Shown here in pieces: positions 690 through 58,902 of a DNA stretch of 64,000 nt. The stretch lies in the sequence record NC_135732.1, one strand, 5' to 3'. Position 1 is the first letter of the stretch. Every line of letters begins with the position of its first letter. Both the position numbers and the translations under genes were made by a program. The notes below the pieces were generated by a model that did no database searches, was not told the DNA's origin, and saw only the letters and a program-made list of their open reading frames with translations. This DNA comes from a phage.

Positions 690-1604
690 ATGAAGTATTT
701 TAATGCAGACGACCTGGTTGACAAAGGTCTTGTAACCAGTAGGTATTACCCAGATCTCGGGTTAAAGATCTATAAATATGCTAGAAAAGTATTTTACAAC
801 AATTTATGGCATTTGTCCCCTCGTTTACTGGAGTGCCGAGGCATTGTTGTAGGTAATGAAGGAAATGTTGTGGCATGGCCCTTCACAAAAGTGTTTAACT
901 TGGGAGAAAACTCCACCAACCTGCCTGACAATAAGCTTGTGACTGCGGTAGAGAAAAAGAACGGATTCCTTGGTGTGGTATCATCTCATAAAGGTGACCT
1001 ATTGTTCTCAACAACCGGGTCTCTTGATTCTCCATATTGTAACCTTGCAAAGGAAACCATCCAAGAGCAATGTGGTAATTTAGATCTTATCAAGAAGGTT
1101 ATGGGCAATGAAAACATGACATTCATGTTTGAAATTTGTCACCCTTCAGATCCGCATATTGTTCAAGAAGACCATGGCGCATATTTGATAGGTTGCAGAT
1201 ATAATGATTCTGGAATAATGCTACCAGAAGCAGCTTTAGATGGGATTGCCAAATACCTTGGTGCAAAACGTCCTCACACTGTGCGTGAAATCCCGTTCAG
1301 CTATGCAAAAGAATTAGCCGCAGAAACAAGGGGCGAAGGGTATATGATCCGTAAGCCTTACTACCCTTATGACCTGCAGCTGAAGATCAAGTCTCCATAC
1401 TACCTGGCACGGAAGGCCGTAATGAGGGGTAAAGCTTGGAAGATTTGGGATGATGATATCTTTAAACGTGTTGACGAAGAGTTTTACGGCATGGTAAACT
1501 TCATTCGTAACAATTACACAGAAGATGTGTGGAACTGCCTCCTGGAGCAGGAACGCCGTGAGATACTTGATTACTATTTCCACAACGAGAACTATATGCA
1601 ATGA
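690..1604 (+). CDS. RNA ligase, T4 RnlA-like (Rnl1 family)
   Basis: LECRGI, KVFNLGEN and EKKNGF (KxxG nucleotidyltransferase lysine) match T4 RNA ligase 1 as recalled; ATG 690 has GAGGAA RBS, alternative ATG 669. Confidence 0.7.
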   Translation: MKYFNADDLVDKGLVTSRYYPDLGLKIYKYARKVFYNNLWHLSPRLLECRGIVVGNEGNVVAWPFTKVFNLGENSTNLPDNKLVTAVEKKNGFLGVVSSHKGDLLFSTTGSLDSPYCNLAKETIQEQCGNLDLIKKVMGNENMTFMFEICHPSDPHIVQEDHGAYLIGCRYNDSGIMLPEAALDGIAKYLGAKRPHTVREIPFSYAKELAAETRGEGYMIRKPYYPYDLQLKIKSPYYLARKAVMRGKAWKIWDDDIFKRVDEEFYGMVNFIRNNYTEDVWNCLLEQERREILDYYFHNENYMQ

Positions 1605-19286: not shown

Positions 19287-19565
19287 ATGAGCTGCGAAAA
19301 ATCTTTTTTCATCATCATTTACGGTAAGGATAACTGCCCACATTGTGTCAGAGCAAAAGAATTTGCAATCAGCAAAGGTCTGCCTTTTGTATATAAGACA
19401 CTTGGCGAGGGCTACACAAAAGAAGAGCTTATTGAGAAGTGTAGTCCAATCGTCCCCCGAACGTTGCCGCAGATCTTCTTAGAAAGCGATCTTGACAGTA
19501 TCCATATAGGCGGTGCCGACGATTTCATCTCTTTTGTTAAGAATGGTTTTGGAGAGAAAAAGTGA
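19287..19565 (+). CDS. glutaredoxin / NrdH-like redoxin
   Basis: CPHC active site (YGKDNCPHCVRAK). Confidence 0.7.
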   Translation: MSCEKSFFIIIYGKDNCPHCVRAKEFAISKGLPFVYKTLGEGYTKEELIEKCSPIVPRTLPQIFLESDLDSIHIGGADDFISFVKNGFGEKK

Positions 19566-20422
19566 AAGTTGTAAAACGGGACGGTAGAGAAGAGTTCTAT
19601 AACGGAATTAAGGTGATCAAGGCGGCAGAGTCCGCCTTACTTGAGTCTGGACATACTGAAGAAGAAGCTTACCGGATCGCCTGCGCGGTTAATGAAGTTG
19701 TTGCTAACAATCTACCAACCGACCAGTGCACAATCTCTGTAAAAAATATCCATATCCTTGTTGAAGATGCTCTTATGGATATGGGTTTAAAATGTGCAGC
19801 CAGAGAATACATCCAGTATAGACAGACAAGAGATAATAACAGAGAGGCAGGTGGAAAACTGCTTGCAGATATTAGTGGCTTCTTGGATCGAACTTGTGAT
19901 GAATTTACAAAAGAAAACGCAAATAAGCCTACTAATCATGTACACACTCATCGCGACCTGCTTGCAGGTATTCTTAGCAAACACCTTGCATCAACACAGA
20001 TCCTGCCAGACCGTGTCTCCGAAGAGCACAATAAAGGCTTCATCCATGTGCATGATCTTGACTACTTGATCAGTCCGTTAACAAACTGTTGTTTGGTAAA
20101 TTATCCAGATATGTTGGAAAACGGATTCAACATTGGTAACGCCCATGTCAGTAAGCCGAAGTCAATAGGGGTTGCAACAACAATCCTTAGCCAAATCTCT
20201 AGTGCGGTAGCTAGTGCTCAATATGGGGGTCAGACTATGAGCCATATTGATCATTATCTGGCACAGTATGCTGAAGCGACCTATGAGAAGAACCTTAAAT
20301 TTTGCCAGGAACATTGGTTGCCAGATGCTGAGACTGTTGCAATGCAAATGACAGATAAAGACGTATTTGACAGCATGCAGACTTTGCTCTATCAAATCAA
20401 TACATTAACTTCTGTCAACGGT
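19562..20422 (+). CDS. nrdD: anaerobic ribonucleotide reductase NrdD, exon 1
   Basis: ATP-cone start MKVVKRDGREE (GTG start); frame ends at TAA 20423, which is the proposed first intron codon. Confidence 0.7.
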
Positions 20423-21219
20423 TAACAAACTGGCCGTTGTAAAACTCTCCTAACCTCATAAGAGGGGTCGGTAAATCCGGCTAACGGGGAACGCTAAGGC
20501 GAAAGCTATGCCAATCCCGTGACTAGTTCTTACAGGAGTTGGAACGGTTGTAACGACTAACGAAAGGCAGAAATGCTTGACAAACATTTCTGAACCAAGT
20601 AGTGTAGGGGTTAGTTGAAATACTAACTTCGAAATGGAGAGGCTCTATGAAAAAGATCATTCTTAATGGTGAAGAATCAAACTATGTGATTGATGAGGTT
20701 GGAAACGTATACGGAAAACGTGGAATGCTACACCCAATATTGTGGGGAGGTTATGGAAAAGGTAACAAGCATGTTAAACGCCGTTATATGTACTCTTTCG
20801 ACCACAAAGGTAAAAAGATTCGAATCCAAACCTCAAGGATTGTTGCCTTGTATTGTTTGCCGGATGTCCCAGAAGACCCTGAAAACTGGGAAGTGAATCA
20901 TAAAGATGGCAATACATTGAATGATCATCCGTCTAACCTAGAGTGGGTTTTGCCGGAAGATAATAAGAGACATGCTTTCCGAACAGGACTTTGTCCAGGT
21001 AAGTGCTATAGGAAAGTGCAGGCATACAAAGGGAAAACCTTGGTGGGTGAATATCCTTCACTCTATGCCTGTGCAAAAGCCTTAAATTTGAACGTAGGTA
21101 ACGTTCATAGGGCTATTGAAGGAAATGCCGAAGGTAAGCATCTCACAATAAAGGGTTATTATCTTATTGAAGTAGAGTAAGAGATAGTCTGGCCCTGTGG
21201 AAACACAGGGAGGAGACAG
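20423..21219 (+). mobile_element. group I self-splicing intron in nrdD (boundaries approximate)
   Basis: P/Q/R/S-like core elements AACGGGGAAC 20483-20492, CAATCCCGTG 20512-20521, GTAACGACTAACG 20550-20562, GAGATAGTCTGG 21181-21192; P9 hairpin 21193-21210; P1 pairing of exon CAACGGT with GCCGTTG 20433-20439. Confidence 0.65.
20647..21180 (+). CDS. HNH homing endonuclease (intron-encoded)
   Basis: VNHKDGNTLNDHPSNLEWV HNH motif; GGAGAGG RBS; inside the intron. Confidence 0.75.
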   Translation: MKKIILNGEESNYVIDEVGNVYGKRGMLHPILWGGYGKGNKHVKRRYMYSFDHKGKKIRIQTSRIVALYCLPDVPEDPENWEVNHKDGNTLNDHPSNLEWVLPEDNKRHAFRTGLCPGKCYRKVQAYKGKTLVGEYPSLYACAKALNLNVGNVHRAIEGNAEGKHLTIKGYYLIEVE

Positions 21220-22482
21220 CAGACTCCATTCATCACATTAAGTTTAGGACTGGATACCTCGGTCTTTGGTAGAATGATTACCAAAAATTACTTGAAAGTC
21301 CACAAAATGGGTCTTGGTGAAGAACGGATCACACCTGTGTTCCCTAAAGTGCTGTTCTTCCTAGAAGAGGGTGTCAACATGAACCCTGGAGATCCTAACT
21401 ATGATTTGAAACGATTAGCTCTGGAATGCTGTGCAGAACGTATCTATCCTGACTTCGTATCTGTACCACTAAATAGGAAAGTGACAGGCTCGACAGATGG
21501 CAAAGTAACGAGCATGGGTTGCCGGAGTTTTCTTAGCAAATACAATGACTTGGAAACAGGCGAGGAGAAATACCTTGGCAGATTTAACTTAGGCGTTGTT
21601 AGCCTTAACCTGCCAATGATTGCGGCAAAAGCTAAGACGGAAGGTGTTGATTTCTTTGCAGTTCTTGACGAATACTTGGATCTTGCATACGAGGCTCACC
21701 TTGTAAGGGTTAACCGTCTAAAAGGAACAAAGGCAGGGCAGAACCCCATCATGTGGTGTGAAGGCGCTCTTGCTCGCCTGGATCCTGAAGAAAGTATTGA
21801 TAAACTCTTCTATGATGGGTACGCTTCCATCAGCATTGGGTATATTGGTGTGTATGAAACCTGTCAGATTTTGGGCAGAGAAGGTGACAAGGCTTTAGCT
21901 CTTGGAATCCTTCAGCACATGAGAGATGCTTGTGAGCGGTACAAGAAGGAAAGTAGACTAGCATTTAGCTTGTACGGCACTCCTTCTGAGAGTCTATGCT
22001 ATAAAGCTGCAACCTGTCTGGATCGTGAATATCCTGAAGTGTTGAAGCACGAGCATGAATATCTCACCAACAGTTTCCATCAGCCAGTATGGATAAATAG
22101 CTCTCCTTTTGATAAGTGGGAGTATGAGGAAGGTTTTGCTATGATCTCCTCTGGTGGCAACATCGGATACGTAGAAACACCTAACCTGAAAAACAACCTG
22201 GATGCTTTAGAGGCTCTTGTTGACTTCGGGTATAAACACATTATGTATTTTGGTATTAACCAACCTGTGGATAAATGTCTCAAGTGTGGTTTCTCTGGTG
22301 AGTTCAGTGCAACAGCTAAAGGCTTTGTATGCCCAGAGTGTGGAAACCATGAAGAGGGAACGATCAGTGTAATTCGACGTGTGTCTGGATACCTTTCCAG
22401 TCCTAACTCCCGTCCTTACAATAAAGGTAAGCAAGCGGAAGTTATCGAGCGAGTTAAGCACTACGGAAGTTGTGGTTGCTGA
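21220..22482 (+). CDS. nrdD: anaerobic ribonucleotide reductase NrdD, exon 2
   Basis: C-terminal glycyl-radical region RRVSGYLSSP and Cys cluster CLKCG...CPECG; frame open from 21181; 3' splice site after G 21219 (alternatives 21210-21261). Confidence 0.65.
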   Translation, partial: QTPFITLSLGLDTSVFGRMITKNYLKVHKMGLGEERITPVFPKVLFFLEEGVNMNPGDPNYDLKRLALECCAERIYPDFVSVPLNRKVTGSTDGKVTSMGCRSFLSKYNDLETGEEKYLGRFNLGVVSLNLPMIAAKAKTEGVDFFAVLDEYLDLAYEAHLVRVNRLKGTKAGQNPIMWCEGALARLDPEESIDKLFYDGYASISIGYIGVYETCQILGREGDKALALGILQHMRDACERYKKESRLAFSLYGTPSESLCYKAATCLDREYPEVLKHEHEYLTNSFHQPVWINSSPFDKWEYEEGFAMISSGGNIGYVETPNLKNNLDALEALVDFGYKHIMYFGINQPVDKCLKCGFSGEFSATAKGFVCPECGNHEEGTISVIRRVSGYLSSPNSRPYNKGKQAEVIERVKHYGSCGC

Positions 22483-53145: not shown

Positions 53146-53499
53146 TTAGTGACAATCACCCCAATTACGACCACACAAGTATTCACCTGTGATCTGGAAC
53201 GGGACTCCCATCATTTTAGAAGCTTGCCAGAAGCAATGCACCACCATTTCACCCACCGGGCTCCAGATAAGTTCAAGCTTCCCGTCATCGTTCAGGATAG
53301 GATCGTACACCGTGTTTCCGTCTCTGTCAACCACTTCGTTTCCGTTCTCATCCTTGCGTGCCTTTTTGTACTTATGACCGTCAAACACATGAAGTTTGGC
53401 TTCCTGCTCTGCCTTAAATGCTTCCAATTCTTCAATTGTGTCGAAGGTGTACACAGTCTTATACTTAGGCGTGTCAGGGACCTGAAGTTGGTACTCATC
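53146..53499 (-). CDS. DNA polymerase family A, exon 2
   Basis: Begins DEYQ (completes motif C YHDE with exon 1); ends ...VPFQITGEYLCGRNWGDCH like Pol I / T7 gp5 C-termini; no in-frame ATG. Confidence 0.7.
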   Translation of the reverse strand, partial: DEYQLQVPDTPKYKTVYTFDTIEELEAFKAEQEAKLHVFDGHKYKKARKDENGNEVVDRDGNTVYDPILNDDGKLELIWSPVGEMVVHCFWQASKMMGVPFQITGEYLCGRNWGDCH

Positions 53500-54341
53500 C
53501 AATAGTTCAGGTAGGTCGTTAAGCTACCCCGCACCATTACGTGCACAGCCATACGGTTTCCTGTATGGATCGGACTATCTCACTACCTTGTTACCAAGGC
53601 ACCTCTCATTTCGACCGCACTTGCTGGCCTACTCTACTCGCTTCTTCACACCAAACTATGTTGGAGCTATGCTTTCGATAGTCTCTGAACGTTACTACCA
53701 GGTGTAGTTTTTAGAGATATGTTTCCACTGTCTTCTTTGCTTTATGGCTCTGACCGTCTCATAAGGATACCCAAGATCCCTAATCTCGCATTGTCGTAGA
53801 CCACTCTGCAACAGTTCGCAAATCTCCGTTACCTCATCCTCGGTCAGCACAGCGTTGGCATTATACTCACCGACTGGCCTTACTCTGAGTTCATTATCGT
53901 AGGCGTGTTTGATATTTCCACCAGGGGTAGTCCATTCCAGGTTCCAGTGTGCATTGTTGTACTTATTTCCATCCTTATGGTTCACCCATGTGAGCTTTTC
54001 AGGATCAGGGTTCGGTACAAAGCATTCAGCAACCAAGTGGTGGACACCTTTTGTGCACTGCTTCCCCTCGATGAGCATGGTTACGCAAAGGTAACCTCTA
54101 CCATTATCAAAACAAAACATTGTTGTATGATCACGTTTCGATAAAGGTATTGTTCCATCATCAAACACGGTATACCCGTGATAATCAGCTGATCTAGCCA
54201 TTTTAACTACACCCCTTTAGTCTTCGCTGCGGATTAGCATATTAAGCTTTTACCATGTTCAGGTGTAAAAGTCAACTTAGCCTTCCCGTCAATTAAAGAG
54301 GTTTTCGACGTGCATCACTGCACGAAGCCACAATGTTATTT
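53500..54341 (-). mobile_element. group I self-splicing intron in DNA polymerase gene
   Basis: Minus-strand P AATTGACGGGAAGG (54294-54281), Q TAATCCGCAGCG (54236-54225), R GTTCAGAGACTATC (53690-53677), S GAGATAGTCC (53581-53572), P9 hairpin with GAAA loop; guide sequence CATTGTGG (54335-54328) pairs exon 1 end CCAT and exon 2 start GATG. Confidence 0.75.
53695..54201 (-). CDS. HNH homing endonuclease (intron-encoded)
   Basis: HHLVAECF...VNHKDGNKYNNAHWNLEW HNH motif; AAGGGGTG RBS; between Q and R elements. Confidence 0.75.
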   Translation of the reverse strand: MARSADYHGYTVFDDGTIPLSKRDHTTMFCFDNGRGYLCVTMLIEGKQCTKGVHHLVAECFVPNPDPEKLTWVNHKDGNKYNNAHWNLEWTTPGGNIKHAYDNELRVRPVGEYNANAVLTEDEVTEICELLQSGLRQCEIRDLGYPYETVRAIKQRRQWKHISKNYTW

Positions 54342-56765
54342 ATGGTAATAAATAATACGACGAACACCTTCATCGTACCACCCGCGCTTCACCATTTGGT
54401 GGTGCATGAGTATCCCAACTAAGTCACACAACGATGCACCACCATTCTGTTGGTATGCATTAAGTAAAGAGTGTTTAGATCGGGTCCAGATAGCATGACC
54501 ATCAAAAGAGTAGATAAACTTCTTACCCGTTGCTTCCCAGAATTTCTCCAGATCTTCTTTACGCCCCTTAAGACCGGGGTTGGCATCCCAAAGTGCATCG
54601 ATTACCCTTTGTCCCAACTCTGGGGAGATATCCAGCATGTCTGCAACTTTGTCTTTTTGTGCCCCATACATAACCCCATACGTGATAGGTTTACCGTCGT
54701 TACGAGACACCTCTCTGCCTGCTACTTTTGTATATGCCTCAGCATTGTTTTGGTGTGCGTCCCCGTTACTTACAACATCATAATACAAGCCGTTGTCGAA
54801 CTCAAAGGCACCCCAAGCCCCGATAAGCTGCTCTAAGTTGGACCCGTCAATACCGATCTCAAAGTATCCCGGAGGAACACCCCACAGACTACGCATCTCT
54901 TTACCCATAACAACTTTAGGAGATGGTTTAGGCATGTTTGCACAAATACTGTGTTTCTGTCTGGAAGTGTTTGTTAATCCAGAGCTTTTAGCAGGAAGCT
55001 TATGGTCAATCTTCAAACGTGGGTGATTAAGAAGACCAGTGTCAACCTTATCCTCCTTGATTGGATCAAGTACCGATCTGCGGTTTCGCAATGATAACCA
55101 CAAGACGATATCTTTAGCCATCTCTCCGTTCAATTTTTCAAGATTCGGGCACAGGTGTCCAAACGTATCTTTCAGTTGCGGAGAAGTAATAAGTGCCCTA
55201 GCTTTTCTACGTATTTTCCCGAATACTTCCTTTTTAATCCTTTCGGAGTTAGGAAAGCTTCGGAACTTGTGCACGGTTGTCTGGAACTTAGCATCAGTTT
55301 TGTTCCAGAAGTTGATAATTAGATCACAATACTCTGACTCTAAAAGCTCGTCCATATATGCATATACTCGTGCATCAACATCTGCATCAGGTAGAGCTTT
55401 CTTCTTGCTGTCTTTAGTTACATCCTTAGTTCTCCACATTGTCGGAAGCCAACCAGCACTGATCAGATACCGCTTAATGTCGTCCTGATTGCTGATTTTC
55501 ATAGGTATCTTGCAGTCCGGCATTCGCTTCTGCTGTAGATCACTTATTGCCTGATCCATTAGCTCTTTAGGTAAAGGTTGTGGTGTGGAGGTGCCCTTAA
55601 TATAGCCTCTCAAGAAATCAGCCATCTTATCTGGGTCTTTGCAGCCCATCTCTTCACACCATTTTATCCCCATCTTACTGACATCTCCTGTGGAGGTAAA
55701 TGCTCGCTTAGGCGGGGCTTTGAACTCTAAAGCACTCATGTCTACAGGATAGCCAAGCTTATCTTTTAACCATTTCCAACCATTATTGGAAATTGTCCCA
55801 TCTTGGTTAAATGGCTTTTCAGGGAACTTGGGCCGCTGAGACATTGACAGCTCTTTTAAAGGTAGTTGTGGTTCAACACGATCAGCGATTTCTTTCATCC
55901 ACGCATCGCAACGGTCACGTAAAGCAATAGCTCCATCTATGTCAAAATACACACCCTGACGGGCCTGCAGCTCCATCAGGAAGTGCTGCAGCATGCCTCG
56001 GCGCAATGCGTTCTTCCAGGTGATTTTCTTGAACCCTTTCGGCTTCTCTTTGGCTGGATCGTACATAAAGTTCTGCATGTCAGATTTGCCGTAGAATACA
56101 CCTTTTGATTCCGCTACCAGCTCTTTCCAGAGCAGCTCCTGGATGATAACGTCCTCGAATACACGATCCACATACTTCCACAACGGAAGATCGCGCCAGT
56201 CATCAATTTGAACTTTCTGGTTACCAAGGGCGTAGCCCCATGCCATAAGGCCGTGAGGACCAACAGGCTGCATTTTCTTAGTAACCGGGTTGAATACAGA
56301 GTCCGGACAACCTTTTGGTAAAGGGCGATCAGGCCACAAGATTCTGCTCATCGCCAACGTATCAAACAGGTTAACCTGGTGGTCGTTGATAGTCCCCATG
56401 CATTTAGGATCACGGAACATATCAAAATGAATACCGGATAATCTTTCCATCAGCATAAAGTCATAACTGTAGCAGTTATGGCAGTTCAAAGCTGTTGGTG
56501 ACCAGTCGGAATTGCCTGTAAGCCAACCTTCCAACTCCGAAAAATCTGCTATGCGAACTTCAAAATCTTTATGAAGAGTTTTCTTTGCCAGAATAAAGTT
56601 CTTAGCCTTCTCTATATCCTCTTCGGAGTAGTGTGTGCGGTCATTTAGAGGAAGGAACAGCATAAAACGGTTCTTATTCAGCTCTTTAAACAGGCCGCAG
56701 TGATAATAAAGATCTGGATCTTCCAGCAAACCGGATGACTCAAAGTCGAACGACCACATGCTCAT
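54342..56765 (-). CDS. DNA polymerase family A, exon 1
   Basis: Motif A FEIGIDGSNLEQLI, motif B RNDGKPITYGVMYG; AAGGAGA RBS; frame reaches stop 2 codons into the intron. Confidence 0.8.
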
Positions 56766-56823: not shown

Positions 56824-58902
56824 TTAAAAAGGTGTTTCATCATCCTCAAAACCAGGGACCGGATCAGAGGATGGATCATCGTATTGGAGGTCTTCCTGCG
56901 TGTCAATAGGCTTGACAGTGGGTGTTACAACCTTATCAGCCACAACCTTGCCCATAGGTGTTTCTACAACTGCATGCTCCTGATCCTCAAACATAGCCTG
57001 AGGTCTCCAAACAACCTCCCCACCTTCTCCGTCTGTAAACATCTGCATTTCTTTGTCCCAGTACCAATTACTGGCATCATGGAACTTACCTGTATGCGGA
57101 TCCATAACTAAAGTGTCAGCAATACCTAAAGTTTTTGCTGGACGGTTTTTAAGACCTACCAGACGGACACGTCCACGAGAACGATCCACCATTTCTTCGG
57201 CCTCGACACCTATGACTACCCAACTCAACTGTTCAAGCCCAGCCGATCCTCGCAAATTCTCTTTTCGCACAGGATACCAGAAAGGTAATGGGTTACCATC
57301 CTTGTCCTTAGGGGGCACAATCTCTGTACGTTTGAGGTGAGCGATCACCAAGATAAACACGTTAAACTGCTTACAAAACGCAGCCAGTTGGGTCATAGCC
57401 ATGTCCAGTTCTTTTCGCTCATCCTTAACATTAAGCCCTGAAATTACCATGGACAGGTGATCCAGCACAATATAACGACAATGGTACAGGCAAACCATTT
57501 GCTTAAGCTTGGTAATCAACTCGTCCACTGGAATAGACCCGAAATGTTTGAACACTTTGATTTTTCCAGCTTTTGCCCATGATTGGTGAATCTCTGCGTG
57601 TTCTTGATCAGTTAAAAACTGGCTAGGATCTTCAACAAACTCTTTAACATCAAACCCTAACTGGTTTGCATACAAGGAGTTAATTGCTTCCTCTGGGTCC
57701 TCCTCAAGATGGATCATACATAGACGATCATCCTCTTCATAGTCATCAGCCTTCGGGCATGTTGGGTCCATTAGGTATCTTGCAATACAATGTTCCAGTT
57801 TTTTAGCTACGGTTGTTTTACCGCCACCTGATGGGCCTGTAAGCATTACAAGTGTCCCCTTGTGCAAGCCTTTTAACATTTTTTGCAGTTTTGGGAACTC
57901 TGCACTGATATCTACCCCGTTGGAAGTCTTTTTCCGCAAAGACTCGATAGAGAAGTCTTCTAAGTCCGACACAGCATCAGGCACATATTTAACAGGATGC
58001 CGGAACATGTTGACAATATCTTCCAGCTTTTTAGCCTTCAGCATGTCACGGATATCTTTTACCCCGTCAGGGTCATTTACTTCACCAGGGTATTCTACGT
58101 GGTAAACGTTATCAGCCATCAAAAATGCTGCGATATTGTGCGTGGCCTCAACACCTTTAATGACGTGTTTTTGCTTCTCTACCTCGTTGGCTGCATCGTT
58201 ATCCATTGCCAGCACAACTGTTCCATAGCTACGGATAAACTTCTCATTGTTTGCAAAAGTATCTACTGCGTTTGCACATCCACAGTTAATTCCAACAAAA
58301 GGTAGGCAGGGTTTTCCTGCCAGATCACCACCGTTGATAACTGCATCGATCCCGTCCTGGACCTCTTTAGCCCACTGTTTCACCTTTGCCGGGGCTTTAG
58401 CATTGGTGAGAATCCCTTTTACTTGTATCTGATATGCAGCCTGCCATGCTGCAATAACATCGCCTTCCCCCTCACAAACGTTAATCTGCTTACGGTTGTT
58501 AGAAGATGCACACAGCTTTTGCCCAAACATTTGGGAGTTAGCCTTTACGATCCCAACCGTCGTAAAGTGCCCACGTTGCTCTTTGGGGATCGTCCAGTCA
58601 CGCTTTTTGAAACCGGACAGATTCCCGTAGCGGTCGTAATATGGGAAATATGTTGCAGTAACTGTCACACCGTCTTCTTGGGACAATGCTGATCGCACAC
58701 CAAAATATTGTGCAGCCATCAGACCGATATTTTGTTGTGGGACAGGGACAATTTTAGTATTTTCTAAAACAGTCTCTACAGTTTCAACTTCTTTTTCATC
58801 ACGATAGTCTCGTTTCACACTTCCCCCACTTTTATACTTAGTTGCTTTCGGGTTTGGCTCACCGAAACGGTTGTATGCAGATGCCATAAATTTACTTCCC
58901 AT
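56824..58902 (-). CDS. primase-helicase (T7 gp4-like)
   Basis: TOPRIM-like CEGEGD and AMDNDAANE, Walker A LTGPSGGGKTT, Walker B IVLDHL; acidic tail ending DDETPF. Confidence 0.8.
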   Translation of the reverse strand: MGSKFMASAYNRFGEPNPKATKYKSGGSVKRDYRDEKEVETVETVLENTKIVPVPQQNIGLMAAQYFGVRSALSQEDGVTVTATYFPYYDRYGNLSGFKKRDWTIPKEQRGHFTTVGIVKANSQMFGQKLCASSNNRKQINVCEGEGDVIAAWQAAYQIQVKGILTNAKAPAKVKQWAKEVQDGIDAVINGGDLAGKPCLPFVGINCGCANAVDTFANNEKFIRSYGTVVLAMDNDAANEVEKQKHVIKGVEATHNIAAFLMADNVYHVEYPGEVNDPDGVKDIRDMLKAKKLEDIVNMFRHPVKYVPDAVSDLEDFSIESLRKKTSNGVDISAEFPKLQKMLKGLHKGTLVMLTGPSGGGKTTVAKKLEHCIARYLMDPTCPKADDYEEDDRLCMIHLEEDPEEAINSLYANQLGFDVKEFVEDPSQFLTDQEHAEIHQSWAKAGKIKVFKHFGSIPVDELITKLKQMVCLYHCRYIVLDHLSMVISGLNVKDERKELDMAMTQLAAFCKQFNVFILVIAHLKRTEIVPPKDKDGNPLPFWYPVRKENLRGSAGLEQLSWVVIGVEAEEMVDRSRGRVRLVGLKNRPAKTLGIADTLVMDPHTGKFHDASNWYWDKEMQMFTDGEGGEVVWRPQAMFEDQEHAVVETPMGKVVADKVVTPTVKPIDTQEDLQYDDPSSDPVPGFEDDETPF

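Follow-up and report, generated by a model that had tools for sequence, protein, structure and literature searches.

The 64,000-nucleotide (nt) stretch of phage DNA analyzed here (sequence record NC_135732.1; "the window") carries on its minus strand a family A DNA polymerase gene in two exons, which are separated by a group I intron of the IA2 type; the intron in turn harbors the open reading frame (ORF) of an HNH homing endonuclease. The region is 98.5% identical to the corresponding part of Escherichia phage I29, and 92-98% identical to that of dozens of rV5-like myophages of the genus Vequintavirus. A DnaB-type primase/helicase gene at 58902..56824 (-) precedes the polymerase locus, the elements of which are listed with their positions in Table 1.

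The Interrupted Polymerase Gene

Exon 1 encodes the exonuclease region together with polymerase motifs A (GIDGSNLE) and B (RNDGKPITYGVMYGAQ). The T of its final His codon, CAT, is position 54342; without splicing, the frame would run on for only two more codons, AAA TAA (54341..54336), and the resulting ORF (56765..54336, minus strand) encodes 809 amino acids ending in ...RRIIYYH-K-stop. Exon 2 lacks an ATG, and the sole start assigned to it by the ORF lister is a TTG that consists of the final three intron bases. The original prediction, which was made from the letters alone, had described exactly this arrangement: a family A polymerase frame with motifs A and B that stops two codons past ...RRIIYYH, and the missing C-terminus (DEYQ...NWGDCH) 842 nt downstream in a frame without ATG. 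All of these coordinates were reproduced.

Joining 54342 to 53499 creates a single open frame of 925 codons, the predicted product of which spans the junction as the peptide ...IIYYHDEYQLQVPDTPK. An alignment of this product to T7 gp5, which had been proposed as a check, covers the C-terminal 305 residues of the joined protein, extends across the junction (E = 1.6e-13) and places YYH/DEYQ over WVHDEIQV of T7 gp5, which means that the break separates the His of motif C from its catalytic Asp. Since motif C (H/DE) is completed only across the junction, neither exon alone provides a full active site. In profile searches, PHROG 17 matches exon 1, while PHROG 8888 is matched by exon 1 at profile positions 1-185 and by exon 2 at positions 185-295, i.e., end to end across the junction; the Pfam domain DNA_pol_A reaches 27.9 bits on exon 1 alone, which is under the cut-off of 34.3. 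Once the exons are joined, a single chain contains motifs A, B and C together with the catalytic Asp residues of a family A polymerase.

The position of the junction follows from phages in which the gene is uninterrupted. Many relatives, among them Murica, JohannBauhin, rV5_ev156, and naam, contain an uninterrupted match (94-98.7% identity) to a 317-nt probe that combines the last 159 nt of exon 1 with the first 158 nt of exon 2. In Murica, the flanking 30-mers are directly adjacent, with 0 nt between the exons (...TATTACCAT/GATGAGTAC...), and the polymerase is annotated as one coding sequence (CDS) of 2778 nt and 925 amino acids. According to an exact-sequence look-up, the predicted spliced protein is identical to this Murica polymerase (AKU44295.1) over all 925 residues. 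The contiguous intron-less alleles and the identity with the Murica protein therefore make the boundaries 54342/54341 and 53500/53499 exact, and they bear out the earlier claim that splicing would restore YHDE in frame.

The Intron RNA

An Rfam scan of the whole window at gathering thresholds yields no match. With E-value thresholds, the group I model RF00028 aligns to 54351..53550 (-) over its full length (model positions 1-253) with 33.2 bits (E = 2e-6 locally and 1e-4 over the whole window), compared to a gathering score of 50. The alignment puts a 510-nt insertion, which corresponds to the ORF, in P6; the score is low because of this insertion, and a default Rfam scan consequently misses the intron. 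ORF-less alleles at the same site all score above 50 bits (19-1-2, 91.2; Vibrio phage K460, 77.3; JEP1, 73.7; rV5, 64.7), the JEP1 core is identical to the window core at 306 of 314 positions, and RF00028 finds no match at the intron-less locus of Murica. The covariance-model search that had been suggested as a check is thus positive with respect to the full-model match and the ORF-less alleles, whereas the window intron itself stays below the gathering score.

A single internal guide sequence pairs with both exons: in P1 with the CCAU at the end of exon 1, including a U.G pair at the 5' splice site (exon U at 54342, guide G at 54331), and in P10 with the GAUG at the start of exon 2. The intron ends in a terminal G (omega G) at 53500, and a G ahead of GATGA likewise closes all of the homologous introns. 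All core helices are paired in the window sequence, and a minimum free energy (MFE) fold of the whole 842-nt intron recovers P2, P8, P9, and P9.1. Both the guide, with P1 and P10 at the positions originally proposed, and the group I core elements P, Q, R and S with the GAAA-loop P9 could be located, the latter being backed by the full-model match, by the scores of the ORF-less alleles, and by covariation.

For the analysis of covariation, introns were collected from 13 phages, all of them at the site ...(Y/S)YH/DE...: the window, JEP1, Mangalyan, HeinrichReichert, and rV5 (Vequintavirus); Av-05 and 19-1-2 (Avunavirus); PBES02, phiTE, and CB7 (Certrevirus); as well as A5-4, Klebsiella phage K54_rec4, and Vibrio phage K460. 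All 13 introns start with AA(A/G)(U/C)AA.AUUGUGGCUU and end with ...G/GAUGA. Twelve of the 13 were aligned with MAFFT after their ORFs had been cut out, and the structure was written from the window sequence. Across 55 pairs in 11 helices, 98.3% of the cells are paired, compared to 34-42% when the 3' partners are slid by 1-3 columns. Changes on both sides occur at 23 pairs (P2-P9.2), compared to 0-5 in the slid controls, and none of 500 shuffles (0/500) reaches the observed covariation. Every pair of P2 shows such a double change, and P3, P6, P7, P7.2, P8, P9, P9.1, and P9.2 show at least one each; P7.2 (GGCC with GGUC), for example, covaries between C-G, G-C, and A-U. P4 was mis-registered by MAFFT where the bulged base is absent; its three inner pairs were left outside the count and checked separately, and in register P4 exhibits a change from G-C to U-A. 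Compensatory changes are hence found in the core helices P3-P8, including the P3/P7 pseudoknot. P1 with its U.G wobble is invariant in 12 homologs, which is uninformative either way because P1 is constrained by the coding sequence.

Subgroup IA2 is characterized by two additional helices, P7.1 and P7.2, which are joined by G-U-A and lie between P7 and the 3' strand of P3 (PMC3428280). Both helices and the linker are present in the window intron, and the GUAG ahead of P7.2 is invariant; P7.1, a short GNRA hairpin in rV5 and PBES02, has an extended form in the window.

Table 1. Positions of the polymerase exons, the intron elements and the nrdD features in the window.
Feature	Position	Strand	Description
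Exon 1, family A DNA polymerase	54342..56765	-	808 codons, end ...RRIIYYH
Group I (IA2-type) intron	53500..54341	-	842 nt
Exon 2, polymerase	53146..53499	-	117 codons + stop; GAT GAG TAC CAA (DEYQ) to NWGDCH-stop
Internal guide sequence	54328..54335	-	CAUUGUGG; pairs both exons
P1	54345..54340 with guide	-	exon-1 CCAU + intron AA paired with UUGUGG
P2 hairpin	54309..54324	-	CGUGCA-GUGA-UGCACG; all six pairs with compensatory changes in homologs
P3 5' strand	54301..54297	-	CCUCU; pairs AGAGG
P4 5' strand	54291..54286	-	UG(A)CGG; pairs CCGCA
P5 extension	54282..54236	-	5' half of core (54225..54301)
P4 3' strand	54232..54228	-	CCGCA; core
P6 5' strand	54227..54225	-	GCG; pairs CGU
ORF-loop closing stem, 9 bp	54205..54213 with 53709..53701	-	GGUGUAGUU with AACUACACC; MFE fold of whole intron
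HNH homing-endonuclease ORF	53695..54201	-	168 aa (amino acids), looped out of P6a, between P4' (Q) and R
P6 3' strand	53691..53689	-	CGU; 3' half of core (53573..53691)
R element	53690..53679	-	GUUCAGAGACUA
P7 5' strand	53683..53678	-	GACUAU; pairs AUAGUC; pseudoknotted with P3
P7.1 and P7.2	53677..53613	-	GUA linker ahead of P7.2; P7.2 = GGCC with GGUC
P3 3' strand	53606..53602	-	AGAGG; core
P8 hairpin	53601..53584	-	UGCCUUG-GUAA-CAAGGUA; core
S element	53581..53571	-	GAGAUAGUCCG
P7 3' strand	53578..53573	-	AUAGUC; core
P9	53568..53549	-	CCAUAC..GAAA..GUAUGG; GAAA loop
P9.1	53545..53530	-	UGCAC with GUGCG; 3' peripheral hairpin (region 53500..53568)
P9.2	53528..53510	-	GGUAG with CUACC; then GAACUAUUG, ending in omega G 53500
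P10	53499..53496	-	exon-2 GAUG paired with guide CAUU
nrdD exon 1	19562..20422	+	ends ...TSVNG
nrdD intron	20423..21219	+	797 nt
nrdD intron HNH ORF	20647..21180	+	177 aa, in P8 loop; Pfam HNH_3 E 6.7e-7
nrdD exon 2	21220..22482	+	starts QTPFITLSLGLDTS, 54 nt upstream of the ATG an ORF caller would choose

The HNH Gene

The ORF within the intron matches PHROG 59 ("HNH endonuclease") with an E-value of 8e-38. The best solved structure for its product is I-HmuI (1U3E; E = 2.8e-5), which aligns over VHHLVAECF...VNHKDGNKYNNAHWNLEW. An HNH (beta-beta-alpha-metal) motif is present in the N-terminal part, where the motif residues align with those of I-HmuI, and the C-terminal region is conserved in orthologs. 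The exact 168-amino-acid protein occurs on 35 contigs, and its cluster at 90% identity comprises 155 sequences. In Av-05, PBES02, K54_rec4, and A5-4, the homologous intron carries an ortholog (50-72% identity) at the corresponding position in P6a. An ortholog with 50% identity is found in the Pseudomonas phage SPA01 (Pakpunavirus, 93 kb) at the same H/DE polymerase site (L016 859..1632), which reads ...AYH/...LL/DEAQ; its placement refers to the polymerase site.

A Shine-Dalgarno sequence, GGGGUG, lies 8 nt upstream of the AUG of the HNH ORF, which, as originally proposed, thus sits between Q and R with a ribosome-binding site of its own. Scans of the intron detected five promoter-like sites compared to 2.5 expected, none of them ahead of the HNH ORF, and no terminator. 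In the MFE fold of the whole intron, the loop that contains the ORF is closed by a 9-bp stem, one strand of which (AACUACACC) consists of the last codons of the ORF, while the other (GGUGUAGUU) covers the GGUG of the Shine-Dalgarno sequence. The stem is extended toward P6 by ACUA (54221..54218) paired with UAGU (53697..53694). Av-05 keeps the closing stem by means of a G-to-A change opposite a synonymous C-to-U change, which turns a G-C into an A-U pair. In the td intron of phage T4, the ribosome-binding site of the I-TevI ORF is occluded by RNA structure. By analogy, we infer from the modeled fold that translation of the endonuclease might be damped via sequestration of the Shine-Dalgarno sequence once the ribozyme has folded.

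Distribution and Probable Mobility of the Intron

Within the genus Vequintavirus, the site exists in four states: empty, with the 842-nt intron, with a 328-nt ORF-less intron, and with a diverged ORF-less intron of 276 nt (rV5). Across related phages, an intron with a different HNH gene is found in addition (CB7, phiTE). The full element is present in about 30 records, which derive from isolated, plaque-forming phages, and its presence or absence is patchy among near-identical phages. In the 328-nt copy of JEP1 (L001 3505..3832), the HNH ORF is cleanly replaced by a 14-nt CAUCC-GAGA-GGAUG hairpin, and in the diverged copy of rV5 (L004 1660..1935), P5 and P7.1 are shortened. ORF-less copies also occur at the identical site in 19-1-2 (317 nt) and K460 (254 nt). 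In CB7 (L014 956..1642) and phiTE (L012 407..1093), a homologous intron encodes a different HNH protein of 127 amino acids, which resembles the 168-amino-acid protein of the window only around the motif. The ORF of this protein has its start in the P5 loop, continues across P4' and P6, and thereby overlaps core helices. The presence of two unlike HNH genes in the same ribozyme core implies that this core was colonised at least twice, independently.

The intron of the phages C7, C9, and A112b shares 97.4% identity with that of the window, compared to only 86.6% for the whole 3.6-kb polymerase region. The intron is hence more conserved than the exons that surround it, which points to recent lateral spread, as predicted for homing. 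The ORF-less derivatives JEP1 (328 nt), rV5 (276 nt), 19-1-2, and K460, which amount to repeated loss of the endonuclease gene, could also be reconciled with an intron that splices but is immobile and vertically inherited, and in which the HNH gene is a decaying passenger. This seems rather unlikely for the window, given that the ORF is intact and encodes a protein found in identical form on 35 contigs and in a cluster of 155 sequences, that its HNH motif residues align with those of I-HmuI, and that the intron is so much better conserved between diverged phages than the polymerase region. An HNH protein that has lost its activity while the gene is still in place is nevertheless conceivable.

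In the Vequintavirinae, the site may keep every stage of the homing cycle: it is found empty, with the intron and its HNH gene, with an intron devoid of the ORF, and re-invaded by a second HNH gene elsewhere in the core. Beyond this, it can tentatively be proposed that the H/DE site holds one old partnership of intron and endonuclease, which might have spread across unrelated phage groups, and in which the Shine-Dalgarno stem would couple folding to endonuclease shut-off. This partnership could include Vequintavirus, Avunavirus, Certrevirus, Klebsiella and Vibrio phages, and the Pseudomonas Pakpunavirus, and perhaps the T7-like phages PhiI and W31. The allelic series in culturable E. coli phages (empty, occupied, ORF-less, different ORF) could serve homing work and, if the proposal is true, would provide a natural test system for models of the life cycle of introns and homing-endonuclease genes and of "collaborative homing."

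A Probable Mobile Self-Splicing Intron in Motif C

Taken together, the locus is best explained by a mobile, self-splicing group IA2 intron, which resides in the Vequintavirus family A polymerase gene between the His and Asp codons of motif C; we put the probability of this explanation at roughly 0.93. One pre-mRNA would be transcribed from the whole gene, and its intron RNA would fold into a P1-P10 ribozyme. An external guanosine would attack 3' of the exon U in the U.G wobble pair of P1, after which the freed 3'-OH of exon 1 would attack after the terminal G, aligned by P10, and the ligated exons would form the mRNA for an active polymerase of 925 amino acids. From P6a, an I-HmuI-like HNH enzyme would be produced, the ribosome-binding site of which would be partly buried in the closing stem. 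In a mixed infection, this enzyme would nick or cut intron-less alleles near TATTACCAT/GATGAGTAC, and repair would copy the intron into them (homing).

Several points weigh against this explanation. Splicing in this phage is predicted from homology and from the argument that the polymerase is essential, and the homologous intron of CB7, which was shown to splice, has a different HNH gene and about 75% identity in the 3' core. The window intron, with its 33.2 bits, scores less than the RF00028 gathering score of 50. The covariation counts are inflated by kinship, as the 12 aligned sequences represent about 6-7 independent lineages; the slid controls retain this relatedness, yet they fail. For the 168-amino-acid ORF, the Pfam domain HNH_3 reaches 19.8 bits (E = 6e-4), under the cut-off of 24.8. 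The activity of the endonuclease, the strand that it acts on, its target, and its cut site are predictions, as is the damping of its translation by sequestration of the Shine-Dalgarno sequence.

Alternatively, the polymerase could be a naturally split enzyme, in which two polypeptides assemble without any splicing and the HNH gene is free-standing, as reported for NrdA/mobE of phage Aeh1. Indeed, many GenBank records annotate three separate CDSs, a TTG codon stands directly ahead of exon 2, and an HNH-containing insertion in another gene of CB7 did not splice (PMC7344957). However, this TTG has no Shine-Dalgarno sequence and lies at the very end of the intron, just past P9.2, and the insert contains a complete group I core with covariation. 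Moreover, catalytic motif C is interrupted between its His and its Asp, the very same protein is produced as a single chain from intron-less alleles, and the CB7 homolog does splice (PMC7344957). The original prediction had itself raised the scenario of a polymerase that is split by nature, with a free-standing endonuclease and an RNA that lacks conserved structure. Both the conserved structure and the existence of uninterrupted alleles speak against this scenario, and a split polymerase is accordingly considered very improbable. That the window intron is splicing-defective and the polymerase a pseudogene in a defective or mis-assembled genome is hardly credible, since the sub-threshold Rfam score that might suggest it results from the 510-nt ORF in P6, only 8 of 314 core positions differ from those of JEP1 (73.7 bits), every core helix pairs, both exons are intact and yield a product identical to a working allele, and about 30 isolated, plaque-forming phages carry the same element.

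Other Introns and an Intein-Like Insertion

A second mobile group I intron in the window interrupts nrdD, the gene for the anaerobic ribonucleotide reductase (19562..22482, plus strand; Table 1). In its P1, CAACGGU is paired with GCCGUUG and includes a U.G pair; RF00028 gives 27.7 bits with a misplaced alignment. The junction was derived from P1, P10, and NrdD conservation, and intron-less relatives such as I29 and Murica match across it without interruption, with up to 99.0% identity. A 3' splice site at 21276/21277 was rejected, since its use would drop about 20 conserved NrdD residues; the site at 21219/21220 is confirmed by the intron-less relatives. Some relatives carry a 257-nt insertion at the nrdD site, which is probably an ORF-less copy of this intron.

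In JEP1 (L001 2125..3093) and Mangalyan (L002 2514..3482), exon 1 of the polymerase gene contains a 969-nt in-frame insertion. It encodes an intein-like sequence of 323 amino acids, which starts with Cys and ends in ...VAVCGN, followed by Cys where the window has Gln (C...GN/C); the Pfam domain Hint_2 matches weakly (E = 7e-5). This intein is absent from the window, where the empty site lies after codon 671 (...SNGDAH/QNN, at about 54753/54752). The polymerase gene of this phage group is thus targeted by an intein and an intron alike.

Other Vequintavirus genomes contain a segment with 94% identity to a 51-nt stretch of the polymerase intron core (P4'-P6-P7, JEP1 allele). In the annotated genome of JohannBauhin (1241..1292), this segment lies in the large-terminase gene, a gene that is described as intron-containing in the rV5 genome paper. 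The similarity of the two segments suggests sequence exchange between introns of one genome. In the window, Rfam and two pattern searches revealed neither this segment outside of the polymerase intron nor a third intron.

A weak match in the Salmonella phage S.Kent 1-2-1 (42.6 kb) was rejected as an intron of the T7-like PhiI type, since it proved to be an intron at another polymerase site (...RLSASNP/...). The 3' end of this intron is similar to that of the window intron. The introns of SPA01 and S.Kent 1-2-1 indicate that related intron RNAs are spread over several polymerase sites and phage families.

Consequences for Annotation

The practical value of these results lies mainly in annotation. 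In most GenBank entries for these phages, the locus is broken up into a truncated "DNA polymerase," an "HNH endonuclease," and either a "hypothetical protein" or another "DNA polymerase," where one joined CDS with an intron should be annotated. In the RefSeq record of rV5, the polymerase is given as two CDSs, and two spurious ORFs (gp221 and gp222) are placed inside the 276-nt intron. The records of PBES02, K54_rec4, A5-4, phiTE, and CB7 present "exon 2" as a separate protein that starts from an ATG in the P9 region of the intron. This misplaced start (MATRNGVG...KLL/DEYQ) adds about 17 residues that are translated from intron RNA, and is a recurrent artefact. By contrast, the polymerase is given as a join of two pieces in the BASEL records of HeinrichReichert (97.5% identical to the window) and RudolfGeigy; the BASEL paper states that comparative annotation was used to place intron boundaries. 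In the rV5 genome paper, the terminase gene is the only one for which introns are described. The element, its site, and its host gene are already known from previous descriptions, and the join is already annotated in near-identical genomes. A selfish intron in the most conserved codons of an essential gene is a textbook case, and opens no new question.

Comparison With Known Systems

A close known system is the intron of the Pectobacterium phage CB7 (Certrevirus), a member of the same subfamily, Vequintavirinae. Splicing of the CB7 intron between CB7_51 and CB7_49 was demonstrated by RT-PCR (reverse transcription PCR) and Sanger sequencing (PMC7344957), and a sequence check of CB7_49, CB7_50, and CB7_51 identifies this intron as the homolog at the same codon. 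It shares with the window intron the site ...YYH/DEYQ, the guide AUUGUGG, and alignable helices from P2 to P9.2, but differs from it in its 127-amino-acid HNH ORF and in length (687 compared to 842 nt).

IA2 introns with HNH genes are also known from the family A polymerase genes of the phages SPO1, SP82, Bastille, and Pf-WMP3, all at Pol I site 674, and the polymerase intron of phiL7 is located at site 676 (PMC3428280). I-HmuI is the nicking homing endonuclease of the SPO1 polymerase intron. Like the window element, SPO1-type introns thus combine an IA2 ribozyme in a phage family A polymerase gene with an HNH homing endonuclease, which in their case nicks its target; unlike the window element, they occupy Pol I position 674 (fingers) and are found in phages of Gram-positive hosts. 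The HNH protein of the window has about 40% identity to tblastn matches in Bacillus phage genomes, which were matched by sequence, not by gene context. The T4 td intron with I-TevI likewise is a phage intron of subgroup IA2, has its endonuclease ORF in a loop extending from P6a, and contains an in-frame stop just past its 5' end, whereas its host gene encodes thymidylate synthase and its endonuclease is of the GIY-YIG rather than the HNH type.

Several features are shared with the introns of the T7-like phages PhiI and W31 (I-TslI), which are IA2 introns with P7.1/P7.2 in a family A polymerase gene, carry an HNH ORF in P6a, and are inserted at site 881. In Klenow numbering, we take this site to lie between His881 and Asp882 (followed by Glu883) of motif C, which would be the same H/DE position as in the window. 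The polymerase introns of PhiI and W31 are documented at site 881 with their ORF in P6a (PMC3428280), and on this numbering, an element of this kind has been described at this codon since 2004. Self-splicing has been shown for PhiI and W31, the hosts of which are podoviruses of about 40 kb, unlike the 137-kb myoviruses considered here. The shared site, subgroup, and ORF position (PMC3428280) make kinship between the window intron and those of PhiI and W31 (AY769989, AY769990) a lead rather than a result.

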